From contig JAZNOU010000008.1 in NCBI GenBank assembly GCA_045589295.1, positions 1 through 55,410 on the forward strand: a stretch of DNA of 55,410 bases, given 5' to 3'. The notes under the pieces were generated by a model. The model was not told the DNA's origin. It did not search any database and worked only from the letters and a program-made list of their open reading frames with translations. Source of the stretch: Clostridia bacterium. Lineage in GTDB: Bacteria > Bacillota > Clostridia > RGIG6154. Position 1 is the stretch's first letter. Each line of letters begins with the position of its first letter. Both the position numbers and the translations under genes were made by a program. Positions 2,500-21,082 of this stretch are shown here, piece by piece.

Positions 2500-2795
2500 A
2501 ATAATTGGAATGAATATTTAGAACACGTTAATATCTTACAAAGATTGTTTACTGCCTAGGGTTATAAATATTTGGAGCCTATAAAACTTAAAAAGAAAAT
2601 GCATCATAATACAGCAATTATAAGCAAAGATGAAATAACCATAAATGATATTATAAATAGATCACCAGAAACACTTTATCCGATTGATAAAAATTTTGAA
2701 AATTGGACAAAGTCACCCGTGGAGCGTTGATGGGTTTATAGAATGTTGTTTGAAAATTAAGAATAGATACTGATTTAATAATAAATGGTGAAATT

Positions 2796-3824
2796 ATGGA
2801 CAAGAAAGAACTTAAAGTAAAATTAAAAACCTACCAAAAGGATAGCATTAAAAAAAGTATATTTGAAACATCAGAAGCTACATATAACAAGGATAAGTGC
2901 ATTACTGGCGGATTAAAAACATTATCTATGCATAATTCTGTTACAAGAGAACTTATCAGTTCTGCATTGGATAAACATAATACCACTAATATCTTTAAAA
3001 GATTACAAGAGAAATTTAAAGAATTATATTCATATGACGCAGACGAATTACAGTTAATAGATAATAGAAGTATGAATATTATGGGAGCATTTATTGATGA
3101 TAAATATGTGTTTTTTGATAGTTTTCTAGAAGAAACACTAAATCCATTCTTTATTATTACAATTATATGGGCTAAATATTTTGATGACAAAGATAAGTAC
3201 GGTAAGTTTTTTAATTATCTGACCGGTGCATTATATGCTGTCATTAAGGATAAAGGTATGTATAATATATACGAAAACCAATACATAAAAGATGAAATAA
3301 GCCAATGGACTAGTACAGTTAATTTGGCGGTTTTCTGTCAATATTTTTGTATGTATTTTTGCTTGGCTCATGAAATTGCACATGGATATATAAAATCAAG
3401 ATCAATGAACTTGAGTTCAAGAGATGAAGAATACAAAGCAGACAGTATTGCTTATGAAGTAGTATTGGGTTTAATGGAAGATGAGGAAGCGTCAAATGTT
3501 TCTGTGCAAGACAGAGAACTGGTTGAATATTGTTATTTAGCTCCAATGATGTTATTTGACATGTGGGATTTGATTTTCTATACAGAGCGTGTATTGTTTC
3601 AAAGGACAATTGTTAATGATTCTCATCCTTCTATTAAAAAGAGAAAGGAAAACTTGTTTTCAATTCCATATGATGACGACAAGTTTAAATTTGATACAGA
3701 AGAAGGAAATGCAGTTTATAATGCATTTACCGATGTTATCGATAAATACAAAACCGAATTATTATATAGGAATGAACGTGGTCAGATAGATGAATTGATA
3801 AGATATATAACGGAAGGAAACTAG
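2796..3824 (+). CDS. Zinc metallopeptidase, M48/U49 (Lit)-like
   Basis: LAHEIAH ... EEYKAD ... SHPSIKKR motif order shared by M48 and U49 peptidases. Confidence 0.6.
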   Translation: MDKKELKVKLKTYQKDSIKKSIFETSEATYNKDKCITGGLKTLSMHNSVTRELISSALDKHNTTNIFKRLQEKFKELYSYDADELQLIDNRSMNIMGAFIDDKYVFFDSFLEETLNPFFIITIIWAKYFDDKDKYGKFFNYLTGALYAVIKDKGMYNIYENQYIKDEISQWTSTVNLAVFCQYFCMYFCLAHEIAHGYIKSRSMNLSSRDEEYKADSIAYEVVLGLMEDEEASNVSVQDRELVEYCYLAPMMLFDMWDLIFYTERVLFQRTIVNDSHPSIKKRKENLFSIPYDDDKFKFDTEEGNAVYNAFTDVIDKYKTELLYRNERGQIDELIRYITEGN

Positions 3825-5385: not shown

Positions 5386-6243
5386 ATGAGAAAAATCACA
5401 AACGAACTAATAACAAAATTTAAAGAATATTTGATTGACGAGGAAAAGACAGTGGCAACACTCGATAAGTATATCAGGGACATAACTGTATTTATGCAAT
5501 GGTCCAATGACAAAGAATTATGCAAGAGCCTTGTGCTGGAGTATAAACAAGAGATAATAGAAAAATACGCACCGGCAAGTGTAAATTCAATTATATCTTC
5601 CCTCAATAGTTTCTTCGTATACAACGAATGGTATGACCTAAAGGTAAAATCTATTAAAATTCAAAAGCAGATTTTTGCTAATAAGGACAAAGAACTCACT
5701 AAAGCAGAATATGAAAGACTGCTCAAAGTGGCGAAGAGTAAAAATAATCAGAGATTATATTATTTAATGCAGACAATTTGTTCTTCGGGTTTGAGAGTGT
5801 CAGAATTAAAATATGTAACTACAGACGCCGTAAGATGTGGTAAGGCAACAATAAACTGTAAAGGCAAAATGAGAATTGTTATACTTCCCAAGCAGCTTTG
5901 TAAAATGCTTAAAGGTTATATAAAGGAAAACAATATAGAAAGCGGTTCCGTATTCGTCAGTAAGAACGGAAAGCCGCTTGACAGGTCAAATATATGGTCT
6001 GATATGAAAAGGTTATGCGAAAGTGCAGGGGTATCAAAAGATAAAGTATTCCCCCATAATCTCCGCCATTTATTCGCACGCACCTACTACTCCCTTCAAA
6101 AAGATGTGGTAAGACTTGCAGATATTCTCGGACATTCAAATGTAAATACTACAAGAATTTATACTATGAGTACTGGCGAAACACATAGGCAACAATTACA
6201 GAAACTCGGGCTTTTGTTGTGTGAAAATAAAAAGACCACATAA
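5386..6243 (+). CDS. Tyrosine recombinase (XerC/D-like), probable invertase for 6235-6487
   Basis: GLRVSEL, HNLRH, LGHS..TTRIY catalytic motifs; AAGGAG RBS; stop codon lies inside the left inverted repeat. Confidence 0.92.
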   Translation: MRKITNELITKFKEYLIDEEKTVATLDKYIRDITVFMQWSNDKELCKSLVLEYKQEIIEKYAPASVNSIISSLNSFFVYNEWYDLKVKSIKIQKQIFANKDKELTKAEYERLLKVAKSKNNQRLYYLMQTICSSGLRVSELKYVTTDAVRCGKATINCKGKMRIVILPKQLCKMLKGYIKENNIESGSVFVSKNGKPLDRSNIWSDMKRLCESAGVSKDKVFPHNLRHLFARTYYSLQKDVVRLADILGHSNVNTTRIYTMSTGETHRQQLQKLGLLLCENKKTT

Positions 6244-6514: not shown

Positions 6515-8065
6515 ATGAAAAACTACGAATTAAATAAAACGCCTTATATAGAGAATTTGAAAGAACTTGTTAATCTTCGTGCTACTATGCCCAACGAAAT
6601 TGCTTTTAAATATAAAAAGAAAAAAGAAATCATTGAAATAACTGCAAAGCAGTTTAAAAATGAAATTGAATGTCTGGGTACATATCTTTACAGTCAAGGA
6701 ATCAAAGACAGTAAAGTTGCTCTTATTGGTGAAAACAGTTATCAATGGATACTTTCATATTTCTCTGTTGCAAATGGCGGAAATATCATTGTGCCCATAG
6801 ATAAAGAACTGTCAAATGATGATATTGCAGACTTAATTAAGCAAAGTGGTGCTGTCGCTCTTATATATGCAGACAGCTATTCTGATATTGCAGATGAGCA
6901 CAAGCACTTACAGTTGTTCAATATGAAAGAGTTTGATACATATGTTTCCGAGGGCAAAAAACTCATTGATGATGGTAGCAAAGACTTTGTTGATTATGAA
7001 ATCGACAATAAAAAACTTTGCTCTATCATATACACATCGGGTACAACCGGAAAACCAAAGGGTGTGATGCTTTGTCATAAGAATTTTGCAGCGGATATTA
7101 TAAGCTCTTGTGAGAACGTATATATTGCTGGTTCATCAATGCTTACTCTTCCTTTGCATCATACCTTTGCATTTTCTACGAGTGTTCTCTCAATGCTTTT
7201 AAAAGGTGTCTCGATTCCTATAAATTCAAGTTTGAGAACATTCAAGCAAGACTTAAAAGATTTCAAACCGCAGAATATGTTCTTAGTTCCGCTTTATGTG
7301 GAAACTATGTATAAAAATATATGGACTACCGCAGATGAACAAGGCAAAACAAAACTTTTAAAGACAATGCTTAAAATAAGCAATGCTTTGCGTAAGGTTG
7401 GAATTGACATCAGAAGAAAAGTTTTTAAAAGTGTTCTTGATGCCTTTGGTGGAGAACTTGATTTAATTGTATCAGGCGGTGCTCCGATAAATGAAAAGTA
7501 CACAAAATGCTTTGATGATTTGGGAATTAAAGTTCTTAATGGTTATGGCATAACAGAATGTTCTCCCGTCGTGGCAGTAAATAGAAACGAAAACCCTGTA
7601 AATGATAGTGTCGGTCTTCTTCTTTCTTGCAATAAGGCAAAGGAAAAAGACGGAGAAATTTTAGTCAAGGGCGATAATGTTATGCTTGGTTATTATGAGG
7701 ATAAACAAGCAACAAAAGATGCCTTCGATGACGGATGGTTTAAAACCGGAGACCTGGGTTATATCAAAGATAATCATTTGTTTATCACCGGAAGAAAAAA
7801 GAACCTTATCATACTTTCAAATGGTAAGAATGTATCTCCCGAAGAACTTGAAGAAAAGATTCAATTGATTGAAAATGTTATTGAGGTTTTAGTATATGCA
7901 GAAAATGATACCATTACCGCAGAAATATACGCAGAAAACACTGATAACATTCAAAATGATATAAATGAACTGAACAAATCTTTACCGCTTTATAAGCAGA
8001 TTTCAAAGGTAAAGTTCAGAGATACAGAATTTGTGAAAACAACAACAAAAAAGATTAAAAGATAG
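6515..8065 (+). CDS. Long-chain fatty acyl-AMP/CoA ligase (AMP-binding enzyme)
   Basis: IIYTSGTTGKPKG, GYGITE, FKTGDLG, GRKKNLIILSNGKNVSPEELE. Confidence 0.9.
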   Translation: MKNYELNKTPYIENLKELVNLRATMPNEIAFKYKKKKEIIEITAKQFKNEIECLGTYLYSQGIKDSKVALIGENSYQWILSYFSVANGGNIIVPIDKELSNDDIADLIKQSGAVALIYADSYSDIADEHKHLQLFNMKEFDTYVSEGKKLIDDGSKDFVDYEIDNKKLCSIIYTSGTTGKPKGVMLCHKNFAADIISSCENVYIAGSSMLTLPLHHTFAFSTSVLSMLLKGVSIPINSSLRTFKQDLKDFKPQNMFLVPLYVETMYKNIWTTADEQGKTKLLKTMLKISNALRKVGIDIRRKVFKSVLDAFGGELDLIVSGGAPINEKYTKCFDDLGIKVLNGYGITECSPVVAVNRNENPVNDSVGLLLSCNKAKEKDGEILVKGDNVMLGYYEDKQATKDAFDDGWFKTGDLGYIKDNHLFITGRKKNLIILSNGKNVSPEELEEKIQLIENVIEVLVYAENDTITAEIYAENTDNIQNDINELNKSLPLYKQISKVKFRDTEFVKTTTKKIKR

Positions 8066-8081
8066 ATTGGAGAAATTGACA

Positions 8082-8294
8082 ATGTTAGAAAGAATTGCAG
8101 AAATACTTTCAAAATATACAAAAGAAGAAATCACAGTAGAATCTACTCTTGTGAATGATTTGGGACTGTCGTCATTTGACATAGTGTCAATTGTAACAGC
8201 ATTTGAAGATGAATTTGACATAGAAATTTCAGACAGAGATATCCGTACGCTTGTATCTGTTGCAGATATCATGGACTACATCGAAAACAACTAA
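8082..8294 (+). CDS. Acyl carrier protein
   Basis: DLGLSSFD phosphopantetheine-site motif, EDEFDIEI; GGAG RBS before ATG 8082. Confidence 0.9.
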   Translation: MLERIAEILSKYTKEEITVESTLVNDLGLSSFDIVSIVTAFEDEFDIEISDRDIRTLVSVADIMDYIENN

Positions 8295-8310
8295 TTGAAA
8301 GGAACAGCTA

Positions 8311-9525
8311 ATGTATCATTTAACAAAACCACAAAAACTAATATACGATATGGAAAAATTTGCAGGCGGTAGCATTGCTACGGTCTGTGGCAGTATTATC
8401 ATAAAAGGGAAAAAAGATATTGAAACACTTTCAGATGCAGTAAATGAACTTTACCGTTTTAATGATGCTTTAAGAATCAAAATTATTGAAGAAGATGGTA
8501 TTCCATATCAAATTATAACAGAATATAAAGAACAAGAAATCAATGTGCTCCGCTTTAAAGATAAAGTAGAGCTTAACAATTATGCAGAAAAATATGCCAA
8601 AGAACCTATGGACTTTTATGGTTCTCTTTGTGATGCCAATATCATAGTCTTAGAGGATAGTTATGGCATACTCGTAAAGCTCCATCACATTATTAGCGAT
8701 GCATGGACGCTTTCCTTAATCGGGAACCAATTTAATGCTTTGCTAAACGGTGAAATTCCAGAGGTATATTCATACTTTGATTATGCTACATCCGAGAACG
8801 AATATATCGAAGGCAAACGATATCAAAAGGATAAGGCGTATTTTATCGATAATTTCAAAAAGTGTGATGAAGTTACATATTTATCGGATAGGCAATCAAA
8901 ATCTGCTGTTACAAACCGAAAAACTTTTGTTGTAGACAAAAACATAACCTCAAAAATCGTAAAATATGCCGGATGTCAAAACACTTCCGTATTTATGGTG
9001 CTTATGACTGCGGTCGCAGTCTATATAAACAGAGTTAAAATGAACAAGGAAAAGTTTTATATCGGCACGGCTGTTTTAAATCGTTCTAATATACAGGAAA
9101 AGAATACAATGGGAATGTTTATAAACACTATTCCTATGCTTATTGAACTTGATAATGATAAGACTTTTGAAGAAAATTTAGAGAACATTTCCAATGAATG
9201 TTATGCAGTTCTTCGCCATCAAAAATTTAATTATGGAGATATACTTTCTACACTCCGTAATGAGTTTAAGTTTGACGGCAATCTTTACGATGTTATGCTT
9301 AGTTATCAAAATGCAAAAATAGTCGGTGAAAATTTTGAAAGCACCTGGTATCACTGCGGAATGTCTACAGATAGTTTGGAGATTCATATTGATGACCGTG
9401 ATAGTGAAGGTATCTTTAAAATTCATTATGATTATCAAGTTGAAAAATTTACAGAAAATGAAATCGAGAGAATGCATGGGCATATATTTAATTTGCTGTT
9501 TGATGCAATGAGTTGGTTCAATTAA
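8311..9525 (+). CDS. Stand-alone NRPS condensation domain
   Basis: LTKPQKLIY start, HHIISDAW active site, MGMFINTIP, RHQKFNY motifs. Confidence 0.9.
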   Translation: MYHLTKPQKLIYDMEKFAGGSIATVCGSIIIKGKKDIETLSDAVNELYRFNDALRIKIIEEDGIPYQIITEYKEQEINVLRFKDKVELNNYAEKYAKEPMDFYGSLCDANIIVLEDSYGILVKLHHIISDAWTLSLIGNQFNALLNGEIPEVYSYFDYATSENEYIEGKRYQKDKAYFIDNFKKCDEVTYLSDRQSKSAVTNRKTFVVDKNITSKIVKYAGCQNTSVFMVLMTAVAVYINRVKMNKEKFYIGTAVLNRSNIQEKNTMGMFINTIPMLIELDNDKTFEENLENISNECYAVLRHQKFNYGDILSTLRNEFKFDGNLYDVMLSYQNAKIVGENFESTWYHCGMSTDSLEIHIDDRDSEGIFKIHYDYQVEKFTENEIERMHGHIFNLLFDAMSWFN

Positions 9526-9542
9526 TCATAAGAGGTAACGCA

Positions 9543-12482
9543 ATGCAAAAGAAAATAAGTGAGTTAAATATGTTATCTTTTGAAGAGGAATGCATATTGA
9601 AAAACCAATTTAATAATACTTCTGCAGACTACCCAAGGGATAAGTGCGTCCATCAGTTGTTTGAAGAACAAGTATTGAAAACACCGGAGAAGACTGCGCT
9701 TATTGCTTGTGATAAAACACTAACATATGATGAACTGAATAAACTTTCAAATAGAATTGCGAATAGCTTAATCGAAAAAGGGGTTAAGGCAAATGATATT
9801 GTTGCCTTTGCTCTGCCGAGAACGAGTTTTCTGATTGCAGTTATGTTTGGCATACTTAAAGTAGGTAGCGCGTACATGCCGATTGATCCTAATTATCCTC
9901 AGGACAGAATCGATTTCATGCTTGAAGATAGCAGTGCAAAATTCTTTATTACTGAAAGCAATTTAAATGAATTTATTTCAGACAATGAAGAAAAACCTAA
10001 TGCTAAAGTTTCGTCTGATAATTATTGCTACTGTATTTACACATCGGGTAGTACCGGGAAACCAAAGGGAGCATTATTGTATCACAAAAACATTGTAAAT
10101 CTCGTTAAGAAACTTGATTTATATAGCAATATAGACGAAATCAAGATATTCGGATTTTTAACAACAATTACTTTTGATGTTGCAACACAAGAAATATTGA
10201 CAGCATTATTGAATGGTTTTACAGGTGTGCTATTTCCTGAAAGACGAGAAACTCATGTTAATGAAATTATAAACTTAATTCAAGCAAACAATATCGATAT
10301 TATATATGCAACACCATCATATTTTGATACAATTACTTCTGTTGAAACGGCTGCAAAAAAATTGTTATCTCTATTGAAAACGGTTGTATTAGCTGGCGAA
10401 CAATTTTATCTTAACGATATAGTAGAAAAATTAAGTAAAAGCTGCAATGTGGTTTTTGAAAATCAATATGGTCCGGCGGAAACTCACGTTGTAACAAGTG
10501 CTCATATATATGTGAATAAAACAAAGAAAATTTGTGAACTTAATATCTTATCAAAAAAAGAAAAAAATACTCTTCTTTACGATTTTAATAATACTTCTGC
10601 AGACTACCCAAGGGATAAGTGCGTCCATCAGTTGTTTGAAGAACAAGTATTGAAAACACCGGAGAAGACTGCGCTTATTGCATGTGATAAAACTCTTACT
10701 TATGATGAATTGAATAAACTTTCAAACAGAATTGCAAACAGTTTAATTGAAAAAGGCATTAAGGCAAATGATATTGTTGCCTTTGCTCTGCCGAGAACGA
10801 GTTTTCTGATTGCAGTTATGTTTGGTATACTTAAAGCAGGTAGCGCGTATATGCCTATTGATCCTAATTACCCGCAGGACAGAATCGATTTTATGCTTAA
10901 CGATAGCAATGCGAAATTCTTTATTAATGAAAGCAACTTAATTGAATTTATTACAGATGACGAAGACAATCCGAATGTAGAAATTACATCTGATAATTAC
11001 TGTTATTGCATTTATACATCAGGTTCTACTGGCGTTCCAAAAGCGACAGTAATAAAGCATTACAGTTTAGTAAATTATTGTTTTAGAAATTATGCAAATG
11101 AAATCATAAATGTAATTAATGACCTAAATTGTCAGAACATAATTTGCATAAACAATGTATGTTTTGATGCCTTTGTGGACGAAACATTTTTATTTTTGTT
11201 AGATGGAAAAACTGTGATTTTAGCTAATGAGAAGCAAATATCTAACTCTGACTATTTTGAAGACTTGGTTCGTACACATAATATTGATGTGATTTCAACT
11301 ACCCCATCTAAATTCAAGGTCTTGGTTAAAAGTCCTGTTCCATTTAAACTTGTGGTGCAAGGTGGCGAAGAATTGACTATTGAACACATCAATTATATTA
11401 ATAAATATTCGAACTCAGTTATTTTTAATACATATGGACCAACAGAAACCACAGTCGGTTGTACATGTGCATGTTCTGATTGTAAATTAAATGAAGCCAA
11501 AAAAATAACTGAACTTGCTATTTTGTCTGAAAAAGAAAAGAATACTCTTCTTTTCGACTTTAACGACACAAAAGCAGATTACCCAAGGGATAAGTGCGTC
11601 CATCAGTTATTTGAGGAACAAGTATTGAAAACACCTGATAAAACTGCTGTTATCGCCTGTGATAAAACCCTTTCGTATGATGAACTGAATAAACTTTCAA
11701 ACAGAATTGCAAACAGCTTAATCGAAAAAGGGGTTAAGGCAAATGATATTGTTGCCATTGCTTTGCCGAGAACGAGTTTTCTGATTGCAGCTATTCTTGG
11801 TATACTCAAATCAGGAGCAGCTTATATGCCAATTGATCCTAACTATCCTCAGGACAGGATAGATTATATGATTCAAGATAGTGGTTCAAAATTGTTTATT
11901 ACAGAAAACAATTTAAAAGAATTTATTTCTACTAATGAGAGCAACTCATCTAAATATGTGGCTGCAGAAAATTTTTATTGTGTTATATATACATCAGGGA
12001 GCACGGGAAGACCTAAAGGATGTATCTTGACACATAAAGGAATTGCGAATTTTTGTTTAAATAATAATGTAGTCAATTATGCCGAAAAAAATAACATTAA
12101 TTTAATAGGTGCATCTGTAAATAATGTTACATTTGATTATTTTATTGCAGAGAATATCGTGCTGTTATTACGAGGACATACAACCTTGTTATGCGATGAT
12201 AATTCTTGCATAAATTCAGCGCTATTTGCAAATTTGTGTAAAAAATATAATGTAAATATTATGCAGACAACACCTACAAAATATAGAATTCTCGCGGAAC
12301 CATTCCCCGAAATACTGAAAAAGATGGAAATTATCGTAACAAGCGGTGAACCTTTAACGGATGAATTATACTGTTTTATGGTAGAAAATTCAAATGCAAA
12401 AATATTTAATCCTCTCGGTCCTAGTGAGTGTTCTGTTTGGGATTTGGGCGGAGATATGCATTGGGAGGGATATTCAAGATGA
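9543..12482 (+). CDS. Protein of three tandem N-terminal adenylation-domain halves (motifs A1-A5 only)
   Basis: AGAGGT RBS and ATG 9543. Three times L(T/S)YDELN / YTSGSTG.PK / FD / (Y/L)GP.E; no A6-A10, PCP or C between units. Confidence 0.88.
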   Translation: MQKKISELNMLSFEEECILKNQFNNTSADYPRDKCVHQLFEEQVLKTPEKTALIACDKTLTYDELNKLSNRIANSLIEKGVKANDIVAFALPRTSFLIAVMFGILKVGSAYMPIDPNYPQDRIDFMLEDSSAKFFITESNLNEFISDNEEKPNAKVSSDNYCYCIYTSGSTGKPKGALLYHKNIVNLVKKLDLYSNIDEIKIFGFLTTITFDVATQEILTALLNGFTGVLFPERRETHVNEIINLIQANNIDIIYATPSYFDTITSVETAAKKLLSLLKTVVLAGEQFYLNDIVEKLSKSCNVVFENQYGPAETHVVTSAHIYVNKTKKICELNILSKKEKNTLLYDFNNTSADYPRDKCVHQLFEEQVLKTPEKTALIACDKTLTYDELNKLSNRIANSLIEKGIKANDIVAFALPRTSFLIAVMFGILKAGSAYMPIDPNYPQDRIDFMLNDSNAKFFINESNLIEFITDDEDNPNVEITSDNYCYCIYTSGSTGVPKATVIKHYSLVNYCFRNYANEIINVINDLNCQNIICINNVCFDAFVDETFLFLLDGKTVILANEKQISNSDYFEDLVRTHNIDVISTTPSKFKVLVKSPVPFKLVVQGGEELTIEHINYINKYSNSVIFNTYGPTETTVGCTCACSDCKLNEAKKITELAILSEKEKNTLLFDFNDTKADYPRDKCVHQLFEEQVLKTPDKTAVIACDKTLSYDELNKLSNRIANSLIEKGVKANDIVAIALPRTSFLIAAILGILKSGAAYMPIDPNYPQDRIDYMIQDSGSKLFITENNLKEFISTNESNSSKYVAAENFYCVIYTSGSTGRPKGCILTHKGIANFCLNNNVVNYAEKNNINLIGASVNNVTFDYFIAENIVLLLRGHTTLLCDDNSCINSALFANLCKKYNVNIMQTTPTKYRILAEPFPEILKKMEIIVTSGEPLTDELYCFMVENSNAKIFNPLGPSECSVWDLGGDMHWEGYSR
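9609..12020 (+). repeat. Three-copy direct repeat, period 975 bp; conserved ~0.45-kb 5' block of each unit
   Basis: acccaagggataagtgcgtccatcagtt at 9631, 10606, 11581; A3 motif acatc at 10041, 11016, 11991. Confidence 0.9.
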
Positions 12483-13099
12483 ATGATGATCAAAAATTTA
12501 TTTATAAAAAGTTAAGAGAAGAAGTTATGGATTTGGTTAAGAGACAGGATACTTATTTGCTTGCAGCATACACCATAACAATTACTATATGGACAGTAGC
12601 TGTTGAAAGAAATAATCCATGGATTGCATTATTACCATTATTTATTTTGTTTGTAATATCTTTAAGAATATGTGATTTTAGAGATAGTTCTGCCTTTCTA
12701 TCTGCATATATTTCCATCTGGTTAGAGAAAAAGCCTGGAATTGGTTGGTCTTATACGAGAGAAAAGTATTTTGAAATAATAAAGAACAAAGAAAGAACCA
12801 AAAGGAATATTTGGATACGATTATTAGACAAAACAGGTAAATATCTTTCACGAATGAGTCTTTGCGTGTTGAGCATTGTTAGTATTGCTCTCTTTTGGAA
12901 AATGCGTGAATCCCATTTTGACAGTTGTCAAAATATCTTTAAAAATATGTTAATTGTGAGTATTCAGTTGATTGTTCTGATAATTCAAATATATAAGTGG
13001 TGTAAATATGTTGATACTACTGAAGTTAAAAAAGAATATATGGACAACTGGAAAACTGTATGTAATATAATAATACAAGAGGAAAAAGAGGAGCATTAA
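12479..13099 (+). CDS. Multi-pass (about 4 TM) membrane protein of unknown function
   Basis: GGAGGG RBS, ATGA overlap with upstream stop; two pairs of hydrophobic segments. Confidence 0.75.
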   Translation: MNDDQKFIYKKLREEVMDLVKRQDTYLLAAYTITITIWTVAVERNNPWIALLPLFILFVISLRICDFRDSSAFLSAYISIWLEKKPGIGWSYTREKYFEIIKNKERTKRNIWIRLLDKTGKYLSRMSLCVLSIVSIALFWKMRESHFDSCQNIFKNMLIVSIQLIVLIIQIYKWCKYVDTTEVKKEYMDNWKTVCNIIIQEEKEEH

Positions 13100-13101
13100 A
13101 A

Positions 13102-15132
13102 ATGATAGATATACATATCGGCAAGCCAATTGCCAACACACAAATTTACATAGTTGATAAATATATGAACATTGTTCCAATTGGTGTTACAGGAGAACTT
13201 TGTATTGCCGGAGACGGAGTCGGTGCTGGATATTTAAATAGACCTGAACTGACTGCAGAAAAGTTTATTGACAACCCCTTTGGTGAGGGTAAATTGTACA
13301 AAACTGGAGACCTTGCATATTGGCGTGAAGATGGTAATATTGCATATGTTGGCAGAAATGACTTTCAAGTTAAGATAAGAGGTTTAAGAATAGAACTTGG
13401 TGAAATTGAAAGTGCCATAGATTCTGTGGAAGGTGTTTCACAGGCTGTTGTTGTGGTGCGTAAAGATGAAAATGGCAGACAACTTATCTGTGCTTTTTAC
13501 ACCCAAAAGCAAGAGGTAGAATTGGTTGATATTAAGAAATCTATATTGGATAAACTCCCTAAATATATGATGCCACATATATTCACAGTTTTAGAGGAAA
13601 TGCCTTTAACTCCGAGCGGAAAAATTAACAGAAAGGCGTTGCCGGAGGTTGATTTAACCAACATTTCAAATGATGTAGAATATATAAAACCTCAAACCCA
13701 TATGCAGATAGCTCTTGCATCAATTATGGAAAATGTATTGAATTATTCTCCAATTGGACTAAATGATAATTTCTTTGATTTAGGCGGAGATTCGTTAAAA
13801 GCGATAGAATTCGTATCAAAAGCACATGGTGAAGGTATATATTTTAATCTTCAAGATGTTTTTGATAATCTAACTCTTGAACAATTGTGTGAAAGTATAG
13901 AAAACAACGATAAACAAAACGTTTCCTTTGCGGATGTCGATTTCACAAAAATCAATAAGATTTTATCTAAAAACAAGACAGAAAACATAAGTGTATCCAA
14001 AAGAAACGAAGTTGGAAATATTCTTCTTGCAGGAGCAACAGGCTTTTTAGGCATGCACTTGCTTTCCGATTTCCTTTATAATGACACCGGAATTGCATAT
14101 TGCCTTGTACGTGGCATTGATACAAAATCTGCAAAAGAGAGATTCTATGAATTATTGCATTTCTATTTTGGAGAAAAATATGATAATAGTGACAGAATAG
14201 TTGTTATTTGTGCAGACTTACATAAAGAAAAATTTGATTTGACTGACACAGAATATAACATGTTGCTTTCAAATATTGACACTGTAATAAATGCAGCCGC
14301 AACAGTTAAACACTATGGCTCTTACGAATATTTCTATGAAGCAAATGTTGAAACCGTACATCAGTTGATTGACTTCTGCAAAAAATCAAATGCCAAACTT
14401 ATTCATACATCAACATTAAGTGTTTCAGGCAACAGCTTTGAAGAATATGAAAATAACAACGAAATGCGTTTTGGAGAAGATAATTTGTATATTGGACAAC
14501 CTCTTGATAATGTGTATGCGCGCAGCAAATTTGAGGCAGAAAAAGCAGTTCTTGAGGCTATGAGTGATGGTTTGCATGCAAACATCATGCGAATGGGTTT
14601 TCTTTCAAACCGTTATAGCGATTCTGTGTTCCAGAGGAACTATGAAAGCAATGCTTTCTTAAAGCGTATTATGGCTATTATCAAACTTGGAATGATACCA
14701 AAAAGTTTTGAGCAAATGCCAATTGAATTTACTCCCATTGATTTAGCGGCAAATGCAGTTATGATAATTACAAGGAATTTTAATAATTACTTTAATGTAT
14801 TTCATATCTGCAATGTAAAAACCATTCCTATGGGACAAGTGATTAACTATTTGCAGGAACTCGGTATAAAGGTCAATGTGATTGAAGATGTTGAGTTTTA
14901 CGATACTTTAAAAAATATTAAGCAAAATAATGAAAATAGCAATATTTTTGAGGTGTTTGCAAACGATTTTAAAGACGGCAACAAATTGGATTATTCAAGT
15001 AAAATAGTTCTTGATAATGACTTCTCTGTTGAGTATTTAAAACAACTTGGTTTTGAATGGTCTGATATTGATTTTGAGTATATAAAGAGATATATTGAAT
15101 ATTTCAAAAAAATTGGGTATTTGGAGGTGTAA
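13102..15132 (+). CDS. NRPS: C-terminal half of adenylation domain (A6-A10) + PCP + thioester reductase
   Basis: Starts IGKPIANTQIYI; GELCIAGDGVGAGY, YKTGDL, GRNDFQVKIRGLRIELGEIE, PSGKINR; FFDLGGDSL; GATGFLG and YARSK; GAGGAG RBS. Confidence 0.92.
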   Translation: MIDIHIGKPIANTQIYIVDKYMNIVPIGVTGELCIAGDGVGAGYLNRPELTAEKFIDNPFGEGKLYKTGDLAYWREDGNIAYVGRNDFQVKIRGLRIELGEIESAIDSVEGVSQAVVVVRKDENGRQLICAFYTQKQEVELVDIKKSILDKLPKYMMPHIFTVLEEMPLTPSGKINRKALPEVDLTNISNDVEYIKPQTHMQIALASIMENVLNYSPIGLNDNFFDLGGDSLKAIEFVSKAHGEGIYFNLQDVFDNLTLEQLCESIENNDKQNVSFADVDFTKINKILSKNKTENISVSKRNEVGNILLAGATGFLGMHLLSDFLYNDTGIAYCLVRGIDTKSAKERFYELLHFYFGEKYDNSDRIVVICADLHKEKFDLTDTEYNMLLSNIDTVINAAATVKHYGSYEYFYEANVETVHQLIDFCKKSNAKLIHTSTLSVSGNSFEEYENNNEMRFGEDNLYIGQPLDNVYARSKFEAEKAVLEAMSDGLHANIMRMGFLSNRYSDSVFQRNYESNAFLKRIMAIIKLGMIPKSFEQMPIEFTPIDLAANAVMIITRNFNNYFNVFHICNVKTIPMGQVINYLQELGIKVNVIEDVEFYDTLKNIKQNNENSNIFEVFANDFKDGNKLDYSSKIVLDNDFSVEYLKQLGFEWSDIDFEYIKRYIEYFKKIGYLEV

Positions 15133-15134
15133 AA

Positions 15135-15896
15135 ATGAATGCAAATAATACTACTAAAAACAAACATAAATTAAGCTACTCAGAAAAAATACAAATAAGT
15201 ATCAGCATAGTAACTTTATTAGTTACAATATTGGCTTTCTGTATTTCCTTGTCTTCTTTAAGAATAGCAGAAAATAGTTATGAGTACGCTACCGCAGACT
15301 TTACACTTACTCCTAAAGTAGAGAAAATAGGAAACAACTTGATGATTAGTAACCCAGATATTGATTTGTTCGAAATCACAGGTATAAGTGTAAATGGATA
15401 TGAACGTTGGCGTATATACGGAGAACAATCTTCTGATACATTGATGTTTAATATATTCACATACAATCAAAATATTTCTGATAAAAATATACCTAATTTA
15501 AATGAAGTGAATGTTGATTTAAATTATGTGTATCAAAATGAGGGGGAAATCTCTATAAGTGAAGACGAACAACAAAAATTTGAGACAGCATATGATGTTA
15601 ATATTGCTAATTTGCAAGGAAAAGCTGAAATGCAATTTAGAGATAAAATCTATGAAATAGATGTCGAGTACACAAACAAAAATAGTTATCATCGAGAGAT
15701 AGCAGAGCTCAATGTAATACTAGATGGTAATGGAAATGTTGATAAAATAACAATTACTGATCATTTTAGCTATAGACATACCGTTTTTAATTTGGCCGAT
15801 AACTATAAAGATTTCAGTTTGGCTTGGCAAGATGTTATAACACATGTTGAATCGCTATCACAACGACCTGCCTGGGTGCCATATGAACAAGAATAA
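15135..15896 (+). CDS. Hypothetical protein with N-terminal transmembrane anchor
   Basis: GGAGGTG RBS, 2-bp gap after NRPS; hydrophobic IQISISIVTLLVTILAFCISL. Confidence 0.7.
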   Translation: MNANNTTKNKHKLSYSEKIQISISIVTLLVTILAFCISLSSLRIAENSYEYATADFTLTPKVEKIGNNLMISNPDIDLFEITGISVNGYERWRIYGEQSSDTLMFNIFTYNQNISDKNIPNLNEVNVDLNYVYQNEGEISISEDEQQKFETAYDVNIANLQGKAEMQFRDKIYEIDVEYTNKNSYHREIAELNVILDGNGNVDKITITDHFSYRHTVFNLADNYKDFSLAWQDVITHVESLSQRPAWVPYEQE

Positions 15897-15899
15897 TAT

Positions 15900-16466
15900 A
15901 TGATATACATAGTAAAAATAGATAAGAGCATTGATGAAAATGTTTTAAAATATCTACTCAGGTTTGTTCAAACGGAAAAACGAGAGCGTATTTTAAAGCA
16001 AAAAGTAAAACAAAATACTGATAATATGCTTATAGGTGAAATTCTTGCAAAAGTAATTATTAAAAAGACTTTTGGCATTGGTATTGCTCAACAAGAATTT
16101 GCTTATACAGAATGTGGGAAACCATACCTGCCTAATCACCCCGATGTTCATTTTAACATCAGCCACTCAGGAGAATATGTTGCTTGTACTGTATCTAATA
16201 AACCTGTTGGAGTTGATATTCAAAAGATTGGCGAATACAATTCTGATGTTGCAAAAAGAGTTTGCAATGAAAAGGAACTTGTTCAAATTGAAAACAGTTT
16301 AGATAGAGCATCGGAATTTACAAAACTATGGGCACAAAAAGAATCAGTTCTGAAAATGTATGGAACTGGTATCGCCGGTGGTGATATTAAAAATTGCCTT
16401 AATAGTTATAATGTTCAATCAGAAAGAGTAGAAGATTATTGGGTGAGTGTTAGTATTTATAATTAA
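15900..16466 (+). CDS. Sfp-type 4'-phosphopantetheinyl transferase
   Basis: GKPY, FNISHSG, GVDIQ, W..KES..K..G motifs. Confidence 0.9.
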   Translation: MIYIVKIDKSIDENVLKYLLRFVQTEKRERILKQKVKQNTDNMLIGEILAKVIIKKTFGIGIAQQEFAYTECGKPYLPNHPDVHFNISHSGEYVACTVSNKPVGVDIQKIGEYNSDVAKRVCNEKELVQIENSLDRASEFTKLWAQKESVLKMYGTGIAGGDIKNCLNSYNVQSERVEDYWVSVSIYN

Positions 16467-16476
16467 TTATAAAGTA

Positions 16477-16510
16477 TAGCTCATATGGAGTTCAATTTCC
16501 ATATGAGCTA
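16477..16510. terminator. Terminator hairpin between convergent genes, ending the NRPS operon
   Basis: tagctcatatgga-gttcaatt-tccatatgagcta 13-bp stem. Confidence 0.7.
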
Positions 16511-17681: not shown

Positions 17682-18230
17682 ATGAAAAAGAAAATAATAT
17701 GTACGGTACTTGCTACAACGAGGTTGCTATCACAAACTGCATCGGTAGCCCCTTGGTGACTCAGTAAATACAGAGTGACATTTGACAACGAACTCGGAAT
17801 CGTGGGAAATGTAACCTTGCAATTCGCATCGGACGGCGGAAACTTTATCAGTCCAATAACCAAAAGATACGGTGAGAGAATCAGCCTTGAAAGTTACATC
17901 CCCATAAAATATGGATACACTTTCCAAGGCTGGTTCACAGACTCACGAACAAAGCAGAATCAGGTAACAACATTTAAATTCACCAAGCCGGATGTTCTCT
18001 ATGCAAAATGGGAAAAGAATCCCGAAGAACCTATAAATCCAAATGACGAAATTATGGCAAAAGACACCTGCTACCTCACAGATGAGGAAACAAAAATGCG
18101 AAATAAAATTATAGAAGAAATGAATAAGGCATACATAGAAGGATTCGGCTATGTAGCACCGGCCAAGACAAAAACAATCATCGTAGACTCAGATGGCGAC
18201 ATAAATAAAATGATCGGCACAATGGAATAA
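17682..18230 (+). pseudogene. Secreted InlB B-repeat (Listeria-Bacteroides repeat) protein with in-frame TGA at codon 26
   Basis: AAGGAG RBS, MKKKIICTVLA signal-like start in frame with ORF 17775-18230; TGA at 17757; P.KYGYTFQGWF...LYAKW repeat motif. Confidence 0.65.
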
Positions 18231-19595: not shown

Positions 19596-21032
19596 TTATC
19601 TCATAATTTTTATTTCTTTAATGTTAGAATTATTATATCCCATAAACTCATTAGAAATTGAAAAATTACAAGTGCCCACAGTGTTCAAAATATTCCCTAA
19701 ATTTTGAACACTGTTGAAATTATTTAAAGATATCTGTAAAGTATCAATATTGATAGTGGATTGGCTCTTACACTCTAATTCATTTTGTTTTTTCTCTTTC
19801 CTTTTTTCCTTTATGATATCATATACTATTGGCACACTTACATTTAAGAAACCTAACAACAACTCAAACAATATAATAGCGTTGCCGTCACATTGTACCC
19901 ATTGTAAAAAACTTCCCGACTGAGTTTGCAATATTTTAGGTTCTATTACATATTCAGGATGTAAAGTTTTTAAAATTTTTACAATGCTGATCTGCGGTTC
20001 GGCTTCATATTTTATAAAAAGGGTATAGTCCTTTTCTTTATCAATATTTATTTTACTTGTTCTTTTTGCAATAAAATCTTGTTGACAAAAGAAGAGAGTA
20101 TTATTTAAATTTTTCAGTTGTTTCTTATTTTGTTCAAAATCTGATTCTATTAAATTTATTTCATTGTGTAATAGTAAACTTGCCTCAAAAATCATACAAG
20201 GAGAAATCAAATTTTTATTATAGTATTCTTCTATTATATATTTAATGAATTTTACATCATCAGAACTTATGGTAATATTTTTCCTTTGACATAAAATGAA
20301 TGCTTTAATGCAAGCAAAAATAAGATTGTCAACATTGCTTTCAAAATATAAGTTTAATTTTAGAATTGCTAAATTAACAAACTTCATTCTTGTCTCATAT
20401 TCTTGAATAAGATCTGTAATCAATTCATCAAAAGAGTCGTTCCAAATTTCTTTATTTTTTAAGTAAGATATATTATCTAACTCTGAATTTAATAACCCCA
20501 ATATATATCCCATCAAGTATTGGTCAACTCTACATGCAGTTAGAGAACAATTATTAAATATCGAATAATAAAAACTTCCACATATACCAGAATCTATAAA
20601 AGTACAAGTGTCAAATATGTTAAGATACGCTGAAGAGTCACTAAAGTCAACAATTTCAAATCTACAATTATTAAATGTATTTTCTTGAAAGAATGTTCCG
20701 GAAATATTACAATTATAAAAGGTGCAATCAGAAAACGTTGAATCAGATATAATAGAATCGTCAAATACTATATTTTCGAATCTAACATTTCTAAACCAAG
20801 TTGACTTTAGCTCAGCATATTTAAAATTCGAGTTAATTAGATGACAGTCTTCTACTTTGGCACCAGTCCATTCGGAAAGTTGGAAATTACAATCATCTAT
20901 AGATTTACTATTGATATTTGTTCCGTTTAACAATGAACGTTCCAAATTTGTACTGACTATAGTCTCATTGATTGTTTTATAACTTAGATTCATATGCTCA
21001 TGTAATTGATTTAATGTAATTATTTCATTCAC
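19596..21032 (-). CDS. Pentapeptide-repeat protein with unknown C-terminal domain (GTG start 21032 or 21041)
   Basis: N-terminal ~170 aa of xxFxx pentapeptides (CNFQL, SNFKY, STFSD, CTFYN, NTFNN). Confidence 0.8.
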   Translation of the reverse strand: MNEIITLNQLHEHMNLSYKTINETIVSTNLERSLLNGTNINSKSIDDCNFQLSEWTGAKVEDCHLINSNFKYAELKSTWFRNVRFENIVFDDSIISDSTFSDCTFYNCNISGTFFQENTFNNCRFEIVDFSDSSAYLNIFDTCTFIDSGICGSFYYSIFNNCSLTACRVDQYLMGYILGLLNSELDNISYLKNKEIWNDSFDELITDLIQEYETRMKFVNLAILKLNLYFESNVDNLIFACIKAFILCQRKNITISSDDVKFIKYIIEEYYNKNLISPCMIFEASLLLHNEINLIESDFEQNKKQLKNLNNTLFFCQQDFIAKRTSKINIDKEKDYTLFIKYEAEPQISIVKILKTLHPEYVIEPKILQTQSGSFLQWVQCDGNAIILFELLLGFLNVSVPIVYDIIKEKRKEKKQNELECKSQSTINIDTLQISLNNFNSVQNLGNILNTVGTCNFSISNEFMGYNNSNIKEIKIMR

Positions 21033-21039
21033 AGTATTC

Positions 21040-21082
21040 ACTTCTCCCTGATAGATAATTTATTATTATCCTTTATTGATAT
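21040..21082 (-). repeat. Right 43-bp inverted repeat, overlapping recombinase stop codon
   Basis: Exact reverse complement of 18417-18459. Confidence 0.92.

Follow-up and report, generated by a model that had tools for sequence, protein, structure and literature searches.

A 55,410-nucleotide (nt) stretch of the genome of a gut or rumen Clostridia bacterium (contig JAZNOU010000008.1 of assembly GCA_045589295.1; hereafter the window) carries a nonribosomal peptide synthetase (NRPS) operon in which one adenylation (A) domain is divided over two genes. The first gene encodes three tandem copies of the N-terminal half of the domain (N-halves or cartridges, motifs A1–A5), and the second encodes the C-terminal half (C-half, motifs A6–A10) followed by a peptidyl carrier protein (PCP) and a thioester reductase (R) domain. 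This architecture, an A domain split between A5 and A6 and accompanied by arrays of N-halves, is real, recurrent and apparently undescribed. The features at the center of the analysis are the following:

9543..12482, + strand: single open reading frame (ORF) of three tandem A-domain N-halves, 979 amino acids (aa) from its ATG (Pfam, NCBIfam, DNA repeats, motifs)
9549..10523, + strand: cartridge U1, with the linker from the condensation (C) domain to the A domain and A1–A5; A4 FDVATQEI, A5 NQYGPAETHV
10524..11498, + strand: cartridge U2; A4 FDAFVDET, A5 NTYGPTETTVG
11499..12482, + strand: cartridge U3; A4 FDYFIAEN, A5 NPLGPSECSVW; stop codon 17 aa past the A5 Glu
12479..13099, + strand: 206-aa ORF with hydrophobic segments, between both A-domain halves; start codon overlapping the stop of the array (ATGA)
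13102..15132, + strand: A-domain C-half (A6–A10), PCP and thioester reductase, 676 aa (Pfam, NCBIfam, 1AMU alignment)

Profile searches found three AMP-binding stretches (Pfam, TIGR01733) in the frame 9513/9543–12482. U1, U2 and U3 each match PF00501 and TIGR01733 from position 1 and carry YTSGSTGxPK, FDxxxxE and GPxE; the stretch reported in full covers positions 1–330 of 384 in Pfam and 1–286 of 409 in TIGR01733. The units, 325, 325 and 327 aa in length, follow one another in the DNA at a period of exactly 975 bp, and a 300-nt reference block repeats within the array at 93% and 85% identity. The start of the C-A linker, KKI[SCT]EL, occurs at 9549, 10524 and 11499, the A3 and A5 motifs are present in every unit, and A-domain similarity ends in each about 10–17 residues past the Glu of A5. 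Across the first ~175 residues (linker, A1–A3) the units are 74–85% identical to one another; across the last ~150, from just past A3 to just past A5, they are only 23–35% identical.

The protein encoded at 13102–15132 begins with MIDIHIGKPIANTQ and matches AMP-binding (PF00501) over positions 343–384 of 384, AMP-binding_C (PF13193) over 1–76 of 76 and TIGR01733 over 293–409 of 409, along with PP-binding, NAD_binding_4 and TIGR01746 (1–371 of 371); the GGDSL serine of the PCP, the glycine-rich GATGFLG motif and a YxxxK motif are visible. In an alignment to 1AMU (GrsA-PheA), residue 330 is the counterpart of U3 residue 313, and the C-half covers 1AMU residues 346–529, its residue 4 falling on 346, so that no A-domain residue is missing and the cut falls inside the A core. 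A5 and A6 lie on opposite sides of the cut, which is near 1AMU residue 343/344 and well away from the A8 hinge, a position that we take, from ANL structures, to be the end of the two-sheet sandwich and the start of the beta-barrel subdomain. The domain is not on one polypeptide: its parts are separated by a stop codon (12480–12482) and the 206-aa ORF, and the second part has its own ATG, at 13102. In A domains the P-loop A3, A4, A5 and nine of the ten specificity-code positions lie in the N-half, and the A7 aspartate, the A8 hinge and the A10 lysine lie in the C-half; an active site needs both. No other free C-half was found in the same genome, only a fused paralogue and distant ligases.

Ribosome-binding-site (RBS)-like sequences, AAGAGG/AAGAGGAG, stand upstream of the ATGs of the array and the C-half gene, with AAGAGGAG preceding the latter. 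The ATG of the 206-aa ORF overlaps the TGA of the array as ATGA, behind GGGAGGGA, and its stop codon lies two bases before the C-half ATG. A preliminary description of this DNA had claimed three tandem ~325-aa N-halves (linker, A1–A5) in 9543–12482, a separate gene at 13102 for A6–A10, PCP and an intact R domain, and a break inside the A core rather than at the Acore/Asub hinge. All three claims are borne out, the first by profiles, the 975-bp period and motifs, the second by the Pfam/NCBIfam matches and the third by the 1AMU alignment (~343/344). It had further described the pieces as tightly coupled, each with its own RBS and an intact frame; the RBSs and open frames stand, but the halves are not adjacent, the 206-aa membrane ORF between them having been overlooked.

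The 206-aa ORF contains several hydrophobic stretches and matched no family in Pfam, NCBIfam or PADLOC; an Atlas search returned unnamed clusters only, and just two homologue clusters were found, 80% and 52% identical. In another study's RNA library, one contig (X1, ~97% identical) skips 451 nt of this inserted ORF (window 12585–13037), gains 9 nt at 12566 and lacks 3 nt at 13067, so that the inserted ORF varies among strains. An intron or ribozyme in the insert was considered and rejected, as no Rfam match was obtained at E up to 1 in 12300–13250. A self-splicing intron or intein was likewise set aside, given the lack of an Rfam match, the lack of a Pfam family in the inserted ORF, and a second split locus (L182, below) with only 27 nt between the genes. 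No excision sites or inverted repeats were found around the insert or the units. A shufflon or invertible cassette was also rejected: the units all repeat in the same orientation, a single inverted repeat was seen in 8000–15500 and sits inside the C gene, and no recombination sites were found, although an integrase is encoded nearby.

The break between A5 and A6 recurs widely in related metagenomic genes. Among the best 120 listed clusters of C-half homologues, the window's own included, 38 start with a Met at most 15 aa before IGxPxxNTQ; these split-type proteins are ~660–685 aa long and 46–70% identical to the 676-aa query. The remaining best listed clusters include 26 A-T-R proteins (T, thiolation domain) with a whole A domain. 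On the N-terminal side, 22 of the 25 proteins composed of a C domain and a single N-half end 14–27 aa past A5, and the remaining three, which stop sooner, appear truncated. Three N-half/C-half protein pairs have longest contigs of equal size (83072, 7897 and 10011), which suggests that the members of each pair adjoin on one contig.

Three split loci were seen as DNA (the window, L182 and L183), beside many fused ones; at the break of each stand a stop codon, an RBS and an ATG. L182, in a species-representative genome, has two tandem C-N-half genes followed by a C-half-PCP-R gene; its break consists of TAA, 27 nt containing AGGAGG, and ATG AAA ATC ACA ATA GGT AAA CCT, with no insert. The multiplied unit at this locus (8559–13004, minus strand) is the whole C-N-half gene, which is another route to duplicate specificity halves. 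L183 has a C-N-half gene, a 242-aa ORF unrelated to the 206-aa ORF of the window, and a 1679-aa gene that starts with a C-half and continues T-C-A-T-R. Between the integrase and the NRPS genes of L183 lies a 395-aa ORF (497–1684) with no Pfam match and only a weak PADLOC match (PDC-M60C, E 3e-5). Judging by this distribution, the break is a property of a protein family and not a local accident. The preliminary description had asked whether the break point stays fixed while cartridges vary: the break is kept at 46–70% identity, the number of cartridges is 1, 2 or 3, and their identity is variable, an outcome in favor of that description.

Scans of genome and metagenome contigs gave, among the matches listed, mostly fused or distant NRPSs; L100 is fused, and a viral contig scan yielded one fused relative. 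No C-half relatives were found in 17 genomes of the window's own family at E 1e-50, and a class-level sample contained them in 2 of 399 genomes, that of the window (G000) included. One locus, L091, has gaps at both A5/A6 boundaries and was rejected as a split example on account of frame disruptions and homopolymer runs.

Tandem N-halves with nothing between them are encoded by 13 cluster representatives, the window's and 12 others:

three units: P0126, P0127, P0129
two units: P0130, P0134, P0140, P0141
C domain and two units: P0128, P0131, P0133, P0139
single chain C-N-N-C-half-PCP-R: P0135, P0136

Within arrays, the A1–A3 parts are 43–85% identical, and the A3–A5 parts are 20–35% identical in 16 of 19 unit pairs, the exceptions being P0129 u1/u3, P0133 and P0139. 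Recurring types of variable part can be told apart by their A4 and A5 strings and are shared by fused, single-split, internal and last positions in differing orders. The variable part of U1 is 62% identical to those of split P0149 and fused P0145, and that of U3 65% and 63% identical to those of P0147 and P0146; for U2 the best match elsewhere is only 41%. To judge from these variable parts, the arrays mostly bring together different specificity types. Unit junctions are of at least two kinds, through a C-A-linker-like segment or directly into the A1 region, so the arrays arose more than once.

The array of the window is not contained in full in any one public contig, a gap that, together with a 22-contig draft assembly and the 300-nt blocks of 85–93% identity common to the units, leaves room for an assembly artefact in which short-read contigs of related strains or paralogues were joined via the conserved 5' parts of the A domain. 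We consider this highly improbable, since every unit junction is unique in sequence, the variable part of one unit running into the linker of the next, since contigs from different public runs (X4, X3, X1, X2) cross the junctions, and since twelve further array proteins derive from other assemblies:

C/array junction: X1 record 2
U1/U2 junction: X4 record 29, 0 differences
U2/U3 junction: X3 record 20, 42 differences in 962 nt
U3/ORF junction: X1 record 4
ORF/C-half junction: X2 record 11

One or more of the bridging runs may be the window's own source sample, which the diverged X1 and X3 cannot be; among the sequencing runs, the highest share of sampled words was 0.28. Two weak joints (10049->13192 and 10748->11691, with sides of 24 and 26 letters) and the uncovered parts of the stretch were not used as evidence. 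Contigs from an RNA library cover the C domain, U3 and the C-half, a weak hint of expression in which DNA carry-over is possible.

The internal units of arrays, those followed by a further unit, are under purifying selection. A2, A3 (P-loop), A4 (Asp) and A5 are kept in all 16 of them. Of 51 columns with a conservation of 90% or more among 73 fused units, the internal units match 94–100% (mean 0.973; the fused units themselves average 0.968). Pairwise comparison of the window's units gave ratios of nonsynonymous to synonymous divergence (dN/dS) of 0.15–0.19 at dS 0.47–1.05; over their ungapped first 175 codons, dS is 0.60–1.05 and dN/dS 0.17–0.18. We argue that these ratios, together with the retention of motifs and columns, speak against idle copies. 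Two 60-nt segments of U1 and U2 (9609–9668 and 9789–9848) are 100% identical in spite of an overall dS of ~0.5–0.6, which suggests gene-conversion tracts.

The ancestry of the locus is mosaic. The C-half-PCP-R region of the window is 92%, 90% and 88% identical to that of the fused proteins P0136, P0138 and P0210, whose C domains are 69–72% and N-halves 47–71% identical to the window's. A C-half that is 92% identical to that of a fused relative with different N-halves implies that cartridges turn over by recombination at the boundary, a role of the boundary on which the preliminary description was silent. In a FastTree phylogeny of the C-half-PCP-R region with 90 rows (35 split, 55 fused; rows with ambiguous N-termini excluded), the split or fused state changes 17 times, and at least 13 changes are forced by well-supported branches. 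Leftover fragments of the A5 motif and tail lie just 3' of N-halves at L182 (one, 10880–10960, minus strand) and at L091 (three A5-like fragments in series, 2511–3095); they look like scars of serial cartridge replacement. The window's own gap contains no A5-like scars.

Most relatives have the ordinary single-chain C-A-T-R form, as does a 1405-aa fused paralogue in the same genome (G000 contig 2, 8445–12662; L006), 71% identical to the window in the C domain and ~68–69% in C-half-PCP-R. A TPR protein and a 4'-phosphopantetheinyl transferase (PPTase) are encoded downstream of the paralogue, and a relaxase and an HD/PRTase-CE protein upstream; this region looks mobile as well. The preliminary description had held that fused relatives combined with relaxed selection at this locus would speak against it. 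Fused relatives exist, the paralogue among them; relaxed selection was not observed, as dN/dS is 0.15–0.19, motifs are retained and split relatives are numerous.

The paralogue could serve as a backup if the window locus were a by-product of recombination without function, foreign DNA (the extra N-halves and the membrane ORF) having broken an intact A domain that has not yet decayed. The 92% identity of the C-half to a fused relative, the low-GC island around the locus, which also encodes an integrase and a Bro-N protein, and the partial absence of the inserted ORF from a related contig all fit such an origin. We nevertheless regard it as unlikely. All frames are open over 9543–15132, with RBSs, the ATGA overlap and no internal terminator; the same break and array type occur in sequences only 43–70% identical; the U2/U3 and U3/ORF junctions are kept in related strains at ~95–97% identity; and dN/dS is 0.17.

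A second alternative accepts that the split A domain works and holds that only one N-half pairs productively with the C-half, most plausibly the last unit (in fused forms the adjacent one), the others being stored or leftover cartridges from a recombination-driven replacement of specificity still under way, at most spacers or an exchange reservoir. That scars of replaced cartridges pile up just 3' of N-halves, that cartridge content varies between loci with 88–92% identical C-halves, that the second N-half is covalently linked to the C-half in P0135 and P0136, and that the identical U1/U2 patches suggest gene conversion are all consistent with it. It is harder to reconcile with dS of 0.47–1.05 at dN/dS of 0.15–0.19, which idle copies would hardly show, or with the complete A2–A5 motifs and the retained family-invariant columns of the internal units. 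Moreover, a crossover deletion between the conserved 5' parts never puts an upstream variable part beside the C-half, so that a reservoir would have no obvious read-out. In addition, a co-fold of two internal units still placed the C-half, with weak support. On balance we think this alternative improbable, though clearly less so than an undecayed by-product.

These observations lead us to propose a model in which the operon, of the form FAAL (fatty-acyl-AMP ligase) - acyl carrier protein (ACP) - C - A-N-half (x3) - small membrane ORF - A-C-half-PCP-R - ORF - PPTase, would belong to a family of lipo-amino-aldehyde NRPSs of gut and rumen Clostridia whose A domain is often carried on two genes cut between A5 and A6. 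The halves would rejoin non-covalently via the native interface of the N-terminal sandwich and the beta-barrel subdomain, and the three head-to-tail N-halves would use the product of the single C-half gene, either competing for one copy or binding one copy each. The single module could then load up to three different amino acids, each of which would be N-acylated by the stand-alone C domain, and a small set of N-acyl amino aldehydes would be released. Because there is one PCP and one starter-type C domain, alternative N-acyl amino aldehydes are expected and not a longer peptide; the iterative formation of a short lipopeptide, raised in the preliminary description, is unlikely for the same reason. 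Since a gene boundary would remove the need for an in-frame 3' joint, N-half cartridges could be duplicated, imported and replaced by recombination.

Pairing of the halves was modeled by co-folding U1–U2 (650 aa) with C-half residues 1–190, a check that the preliminary description had suggested. The ipSAE scores were 0.60, 0.61 and 0.57 against 0.00 in three controls; the runs share at least 57% of contacts, and the partner pLDDT is at least 77. Of 80 solved complexes, 58 came up to the mark applied, as did 2 of 110 mismatched pairs; an ipSAE no higher than 0.60 was obtained for just 7 of the 80 and for both passing mismatches. The predicted complex thus lends weak support to N-half/C-half pairing, and the interpretation of the preliminary description, in which one shared half could dock on any of three pockets, is partly supported.

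Several points weigh against the model. A pass in the co-fold may stem from the predictor having learned the fold of intact A domains, which are solved, and the new termini show no visible docking elements. The pairwise dN/dS values give no constraint per unit lineage. Frequent changes between the split and fused states are also expected of a nearly neutral character, the 92% identity to a fused relative could mean that the window's split is recent and pre-decay, and the fused paralogue could make the split locus dispensable. In P0135 and P0136, with both N-halves in one chain with the C-half, only the adjacent one must work. Split C-half and array cases other than the three DNA loci are predicted proteins without context, and some of their C-termini could be contig ends; a separated N-half/C-half pair was seen in none of 45 species-representative loci, which were mapped coarsely. 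With these points set against the evidence above, we are about evenly divided on whether multi-cartridge trans-assembly is the best explanation. The fuller proposal, advanced tentatively and with somewhat less confidence, is that the locus is a natural multiplexed A domain whose interchangeable A1–A5 halves would each complete an active site with copies of a shared C-half-PCP-R protein and together yield a small, defined set of N-acyl amino aldehydes, and that the gene boundary between A5 and A6 is a selected evolvability device for adding and losing cartridges, and exchanging them among loci, with no need for in-frame joints.

Neither an A5/A6 cut nor tandem N-halves were described in the literature covered by a full-text search, which left subscription journals and supplements outside its reach, and in this the claim of the preliminary description that the architecture is undescribed agrees with our result. 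The only natural split A domain found was that of the corallorazine synthetase of Corallococcus coralloides, Crz1/Crz2, which is carried on two adjacent genes, cut between A8 and A9, and regains adenylating activity on mixing (PMC11342130). The likeness is that the A domain of the window, and those of L182 and L183, are also divided over two ORFs. Crz1 comprises the A core and a methyltransferase and Crz2 the Asub (PMC11342130), whereas in the window the break lies within the A core, after A5 and before A6, and no methyltransferase is present. The window's family differs further from Crz in its arrays of several alternative N-halves, the inserted ORF at two loci and its many independent split and fused relatives. 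Engineered split NRPSs are reportedly treated in a bioRxiv preprint.

According to Baunach et al. 2021 (PMC8097286), it is chiefly variable A-core segments that natural recombination replaces, the C-A linker and the Asub being kept. The window fits this pattern of A-core subdomain exchange: there the variable part is swapped and the C-A linker and Asub-PCP interface stay native, and the units of the window differ from just past A3 to just past A5, with the C-A linker, A1–A3 and all of the C-half conserved. In the cases presented there, however, a new piece replaces the old one in a continuous A domain, whereas in the window the old piece stays beside the new one, each a complete N-half in a tandem series, and the 3' exchange boundary is the gene boundary.

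The domain set is shared with C-A-T-R clusters of gut Clostridia and with reductase-terminated NRPSs of the AusA and MxcG types (NCBIfam names), but in the window the A domain is in pieces and multiplied. C-A-T-R / FAAL-ACP lipopeptide-aldehyde NRPS clusters of gut Clostridia were reportedly the subject of Guo et al. in Cell in 2017. The NCBIfam equivalog scores of the window's proteins are all far under the cut-offs, so the window is not a member of the named equivalogs. A gene in pieces through insertion of a free-standing gene is known from phage Aeh1, where mobE splits nrdA. As there, an unrelated ORF interrupts a conserved enzyme gene whose products are thought to reassemble; in contrast, the inserts of the window and L183 are small, hydrophobic, without nuclease families and mutually unrelated, and L182 is split without an insert.

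NRPS engineering has long sought A-domain cut sites that allow specificity to be exchanged without loss of activity, and A-core subdomain exchange has reportedly been engineered (Crüsemann in 2013, Kries in 2015). If the halves reassemble, nature would have tested the A5/A6 subdomain boundary many times, with several cartridge types on one constant half, which would offer a concrete split point and ready cartridge sets for such work. The window would also be a second, mechanistically different case beside the single published split A domain, and would show A-core recombination caught in progress, with tandem intermediates and scars. It points to a metabolite family of the gut and rumen, probably N-acyl amino aldehydes, whose diversity is unusually encoded. 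Standard genome-mining tools may call such genes truncated or broken.

The array and C-half genes are part of a run of nine + strand ORFs in 6515–16466, spaced 1–17 nt apart or overlapping. The other features of the region are:

5386..6243, + strand: tyrosine recombinase (phage-integrase family), 285 aa, 5' of the cluster (Pfam PF00589, E 7e-30)
6515..8065, + strand: fatty-acyl-AMP/CoA-ligase-like adenylating enzyme, for starter unit activation (Pfam AMP-binding, E 3e-56)
8067..8294, + strand: stand-alone ACP (Pfam PP-binding, E 5e-10)
8311..9525, + strand: stand-alone C domain, ending where the C-A linker starts (Pfam Condensation, 4–434 of 456)
15135..15896, + strand: 253-aa ORF inside the operon (no Pfam, NCBIfam or PADLOC family found)
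15900..16466, + strand: Sfp-type PPTase (Pfam PF22624 and PF01648)
16477..16510, both strands: bidirectional terminator-like hairpin at the operon end, 14-pair stem with a T-run on both strands

The protein encoded at 6515–8065 matches NCBIfam models for long-chain fatty-acid ligases, with scores under their cut-offs. The only other + strand terminator-like signals in the operon are at 13423 and 14570, both with 9-pair stems and weak T-runs, and the total of such signals equals the number given by shuffled sequence. FAAL, ACP, C, A, PCP, thioester reductase and PPTase are all in one operon; the predicted product class is an N-acyl amino aldehyde or alcohol.

The operon lies in a low-GC island at ~2–22 kb of the window (28–34% G+C, against 34–40% further on). 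Besides the integrase and the NRPS genes, the island encodes a Bro-N protein (766–1641), a Listeria-Bacteroides-repeat protein (17775–18230) and, on the minus strand, a pentapeptide-repeat protein (19596–21041). The integrase (5386–6243) is 63% identical to an integrase fragment (L183 3–200) upstream of the split NRPS of L183 (G589 contig 7), and the two clusters may travel on related integrative elements. In a related contig (X3), the region of the 253-aa ORF (15132–15904) is replaced by 765 unrelated letters, and the C-half-PCP-R and PPTase genes are retained.

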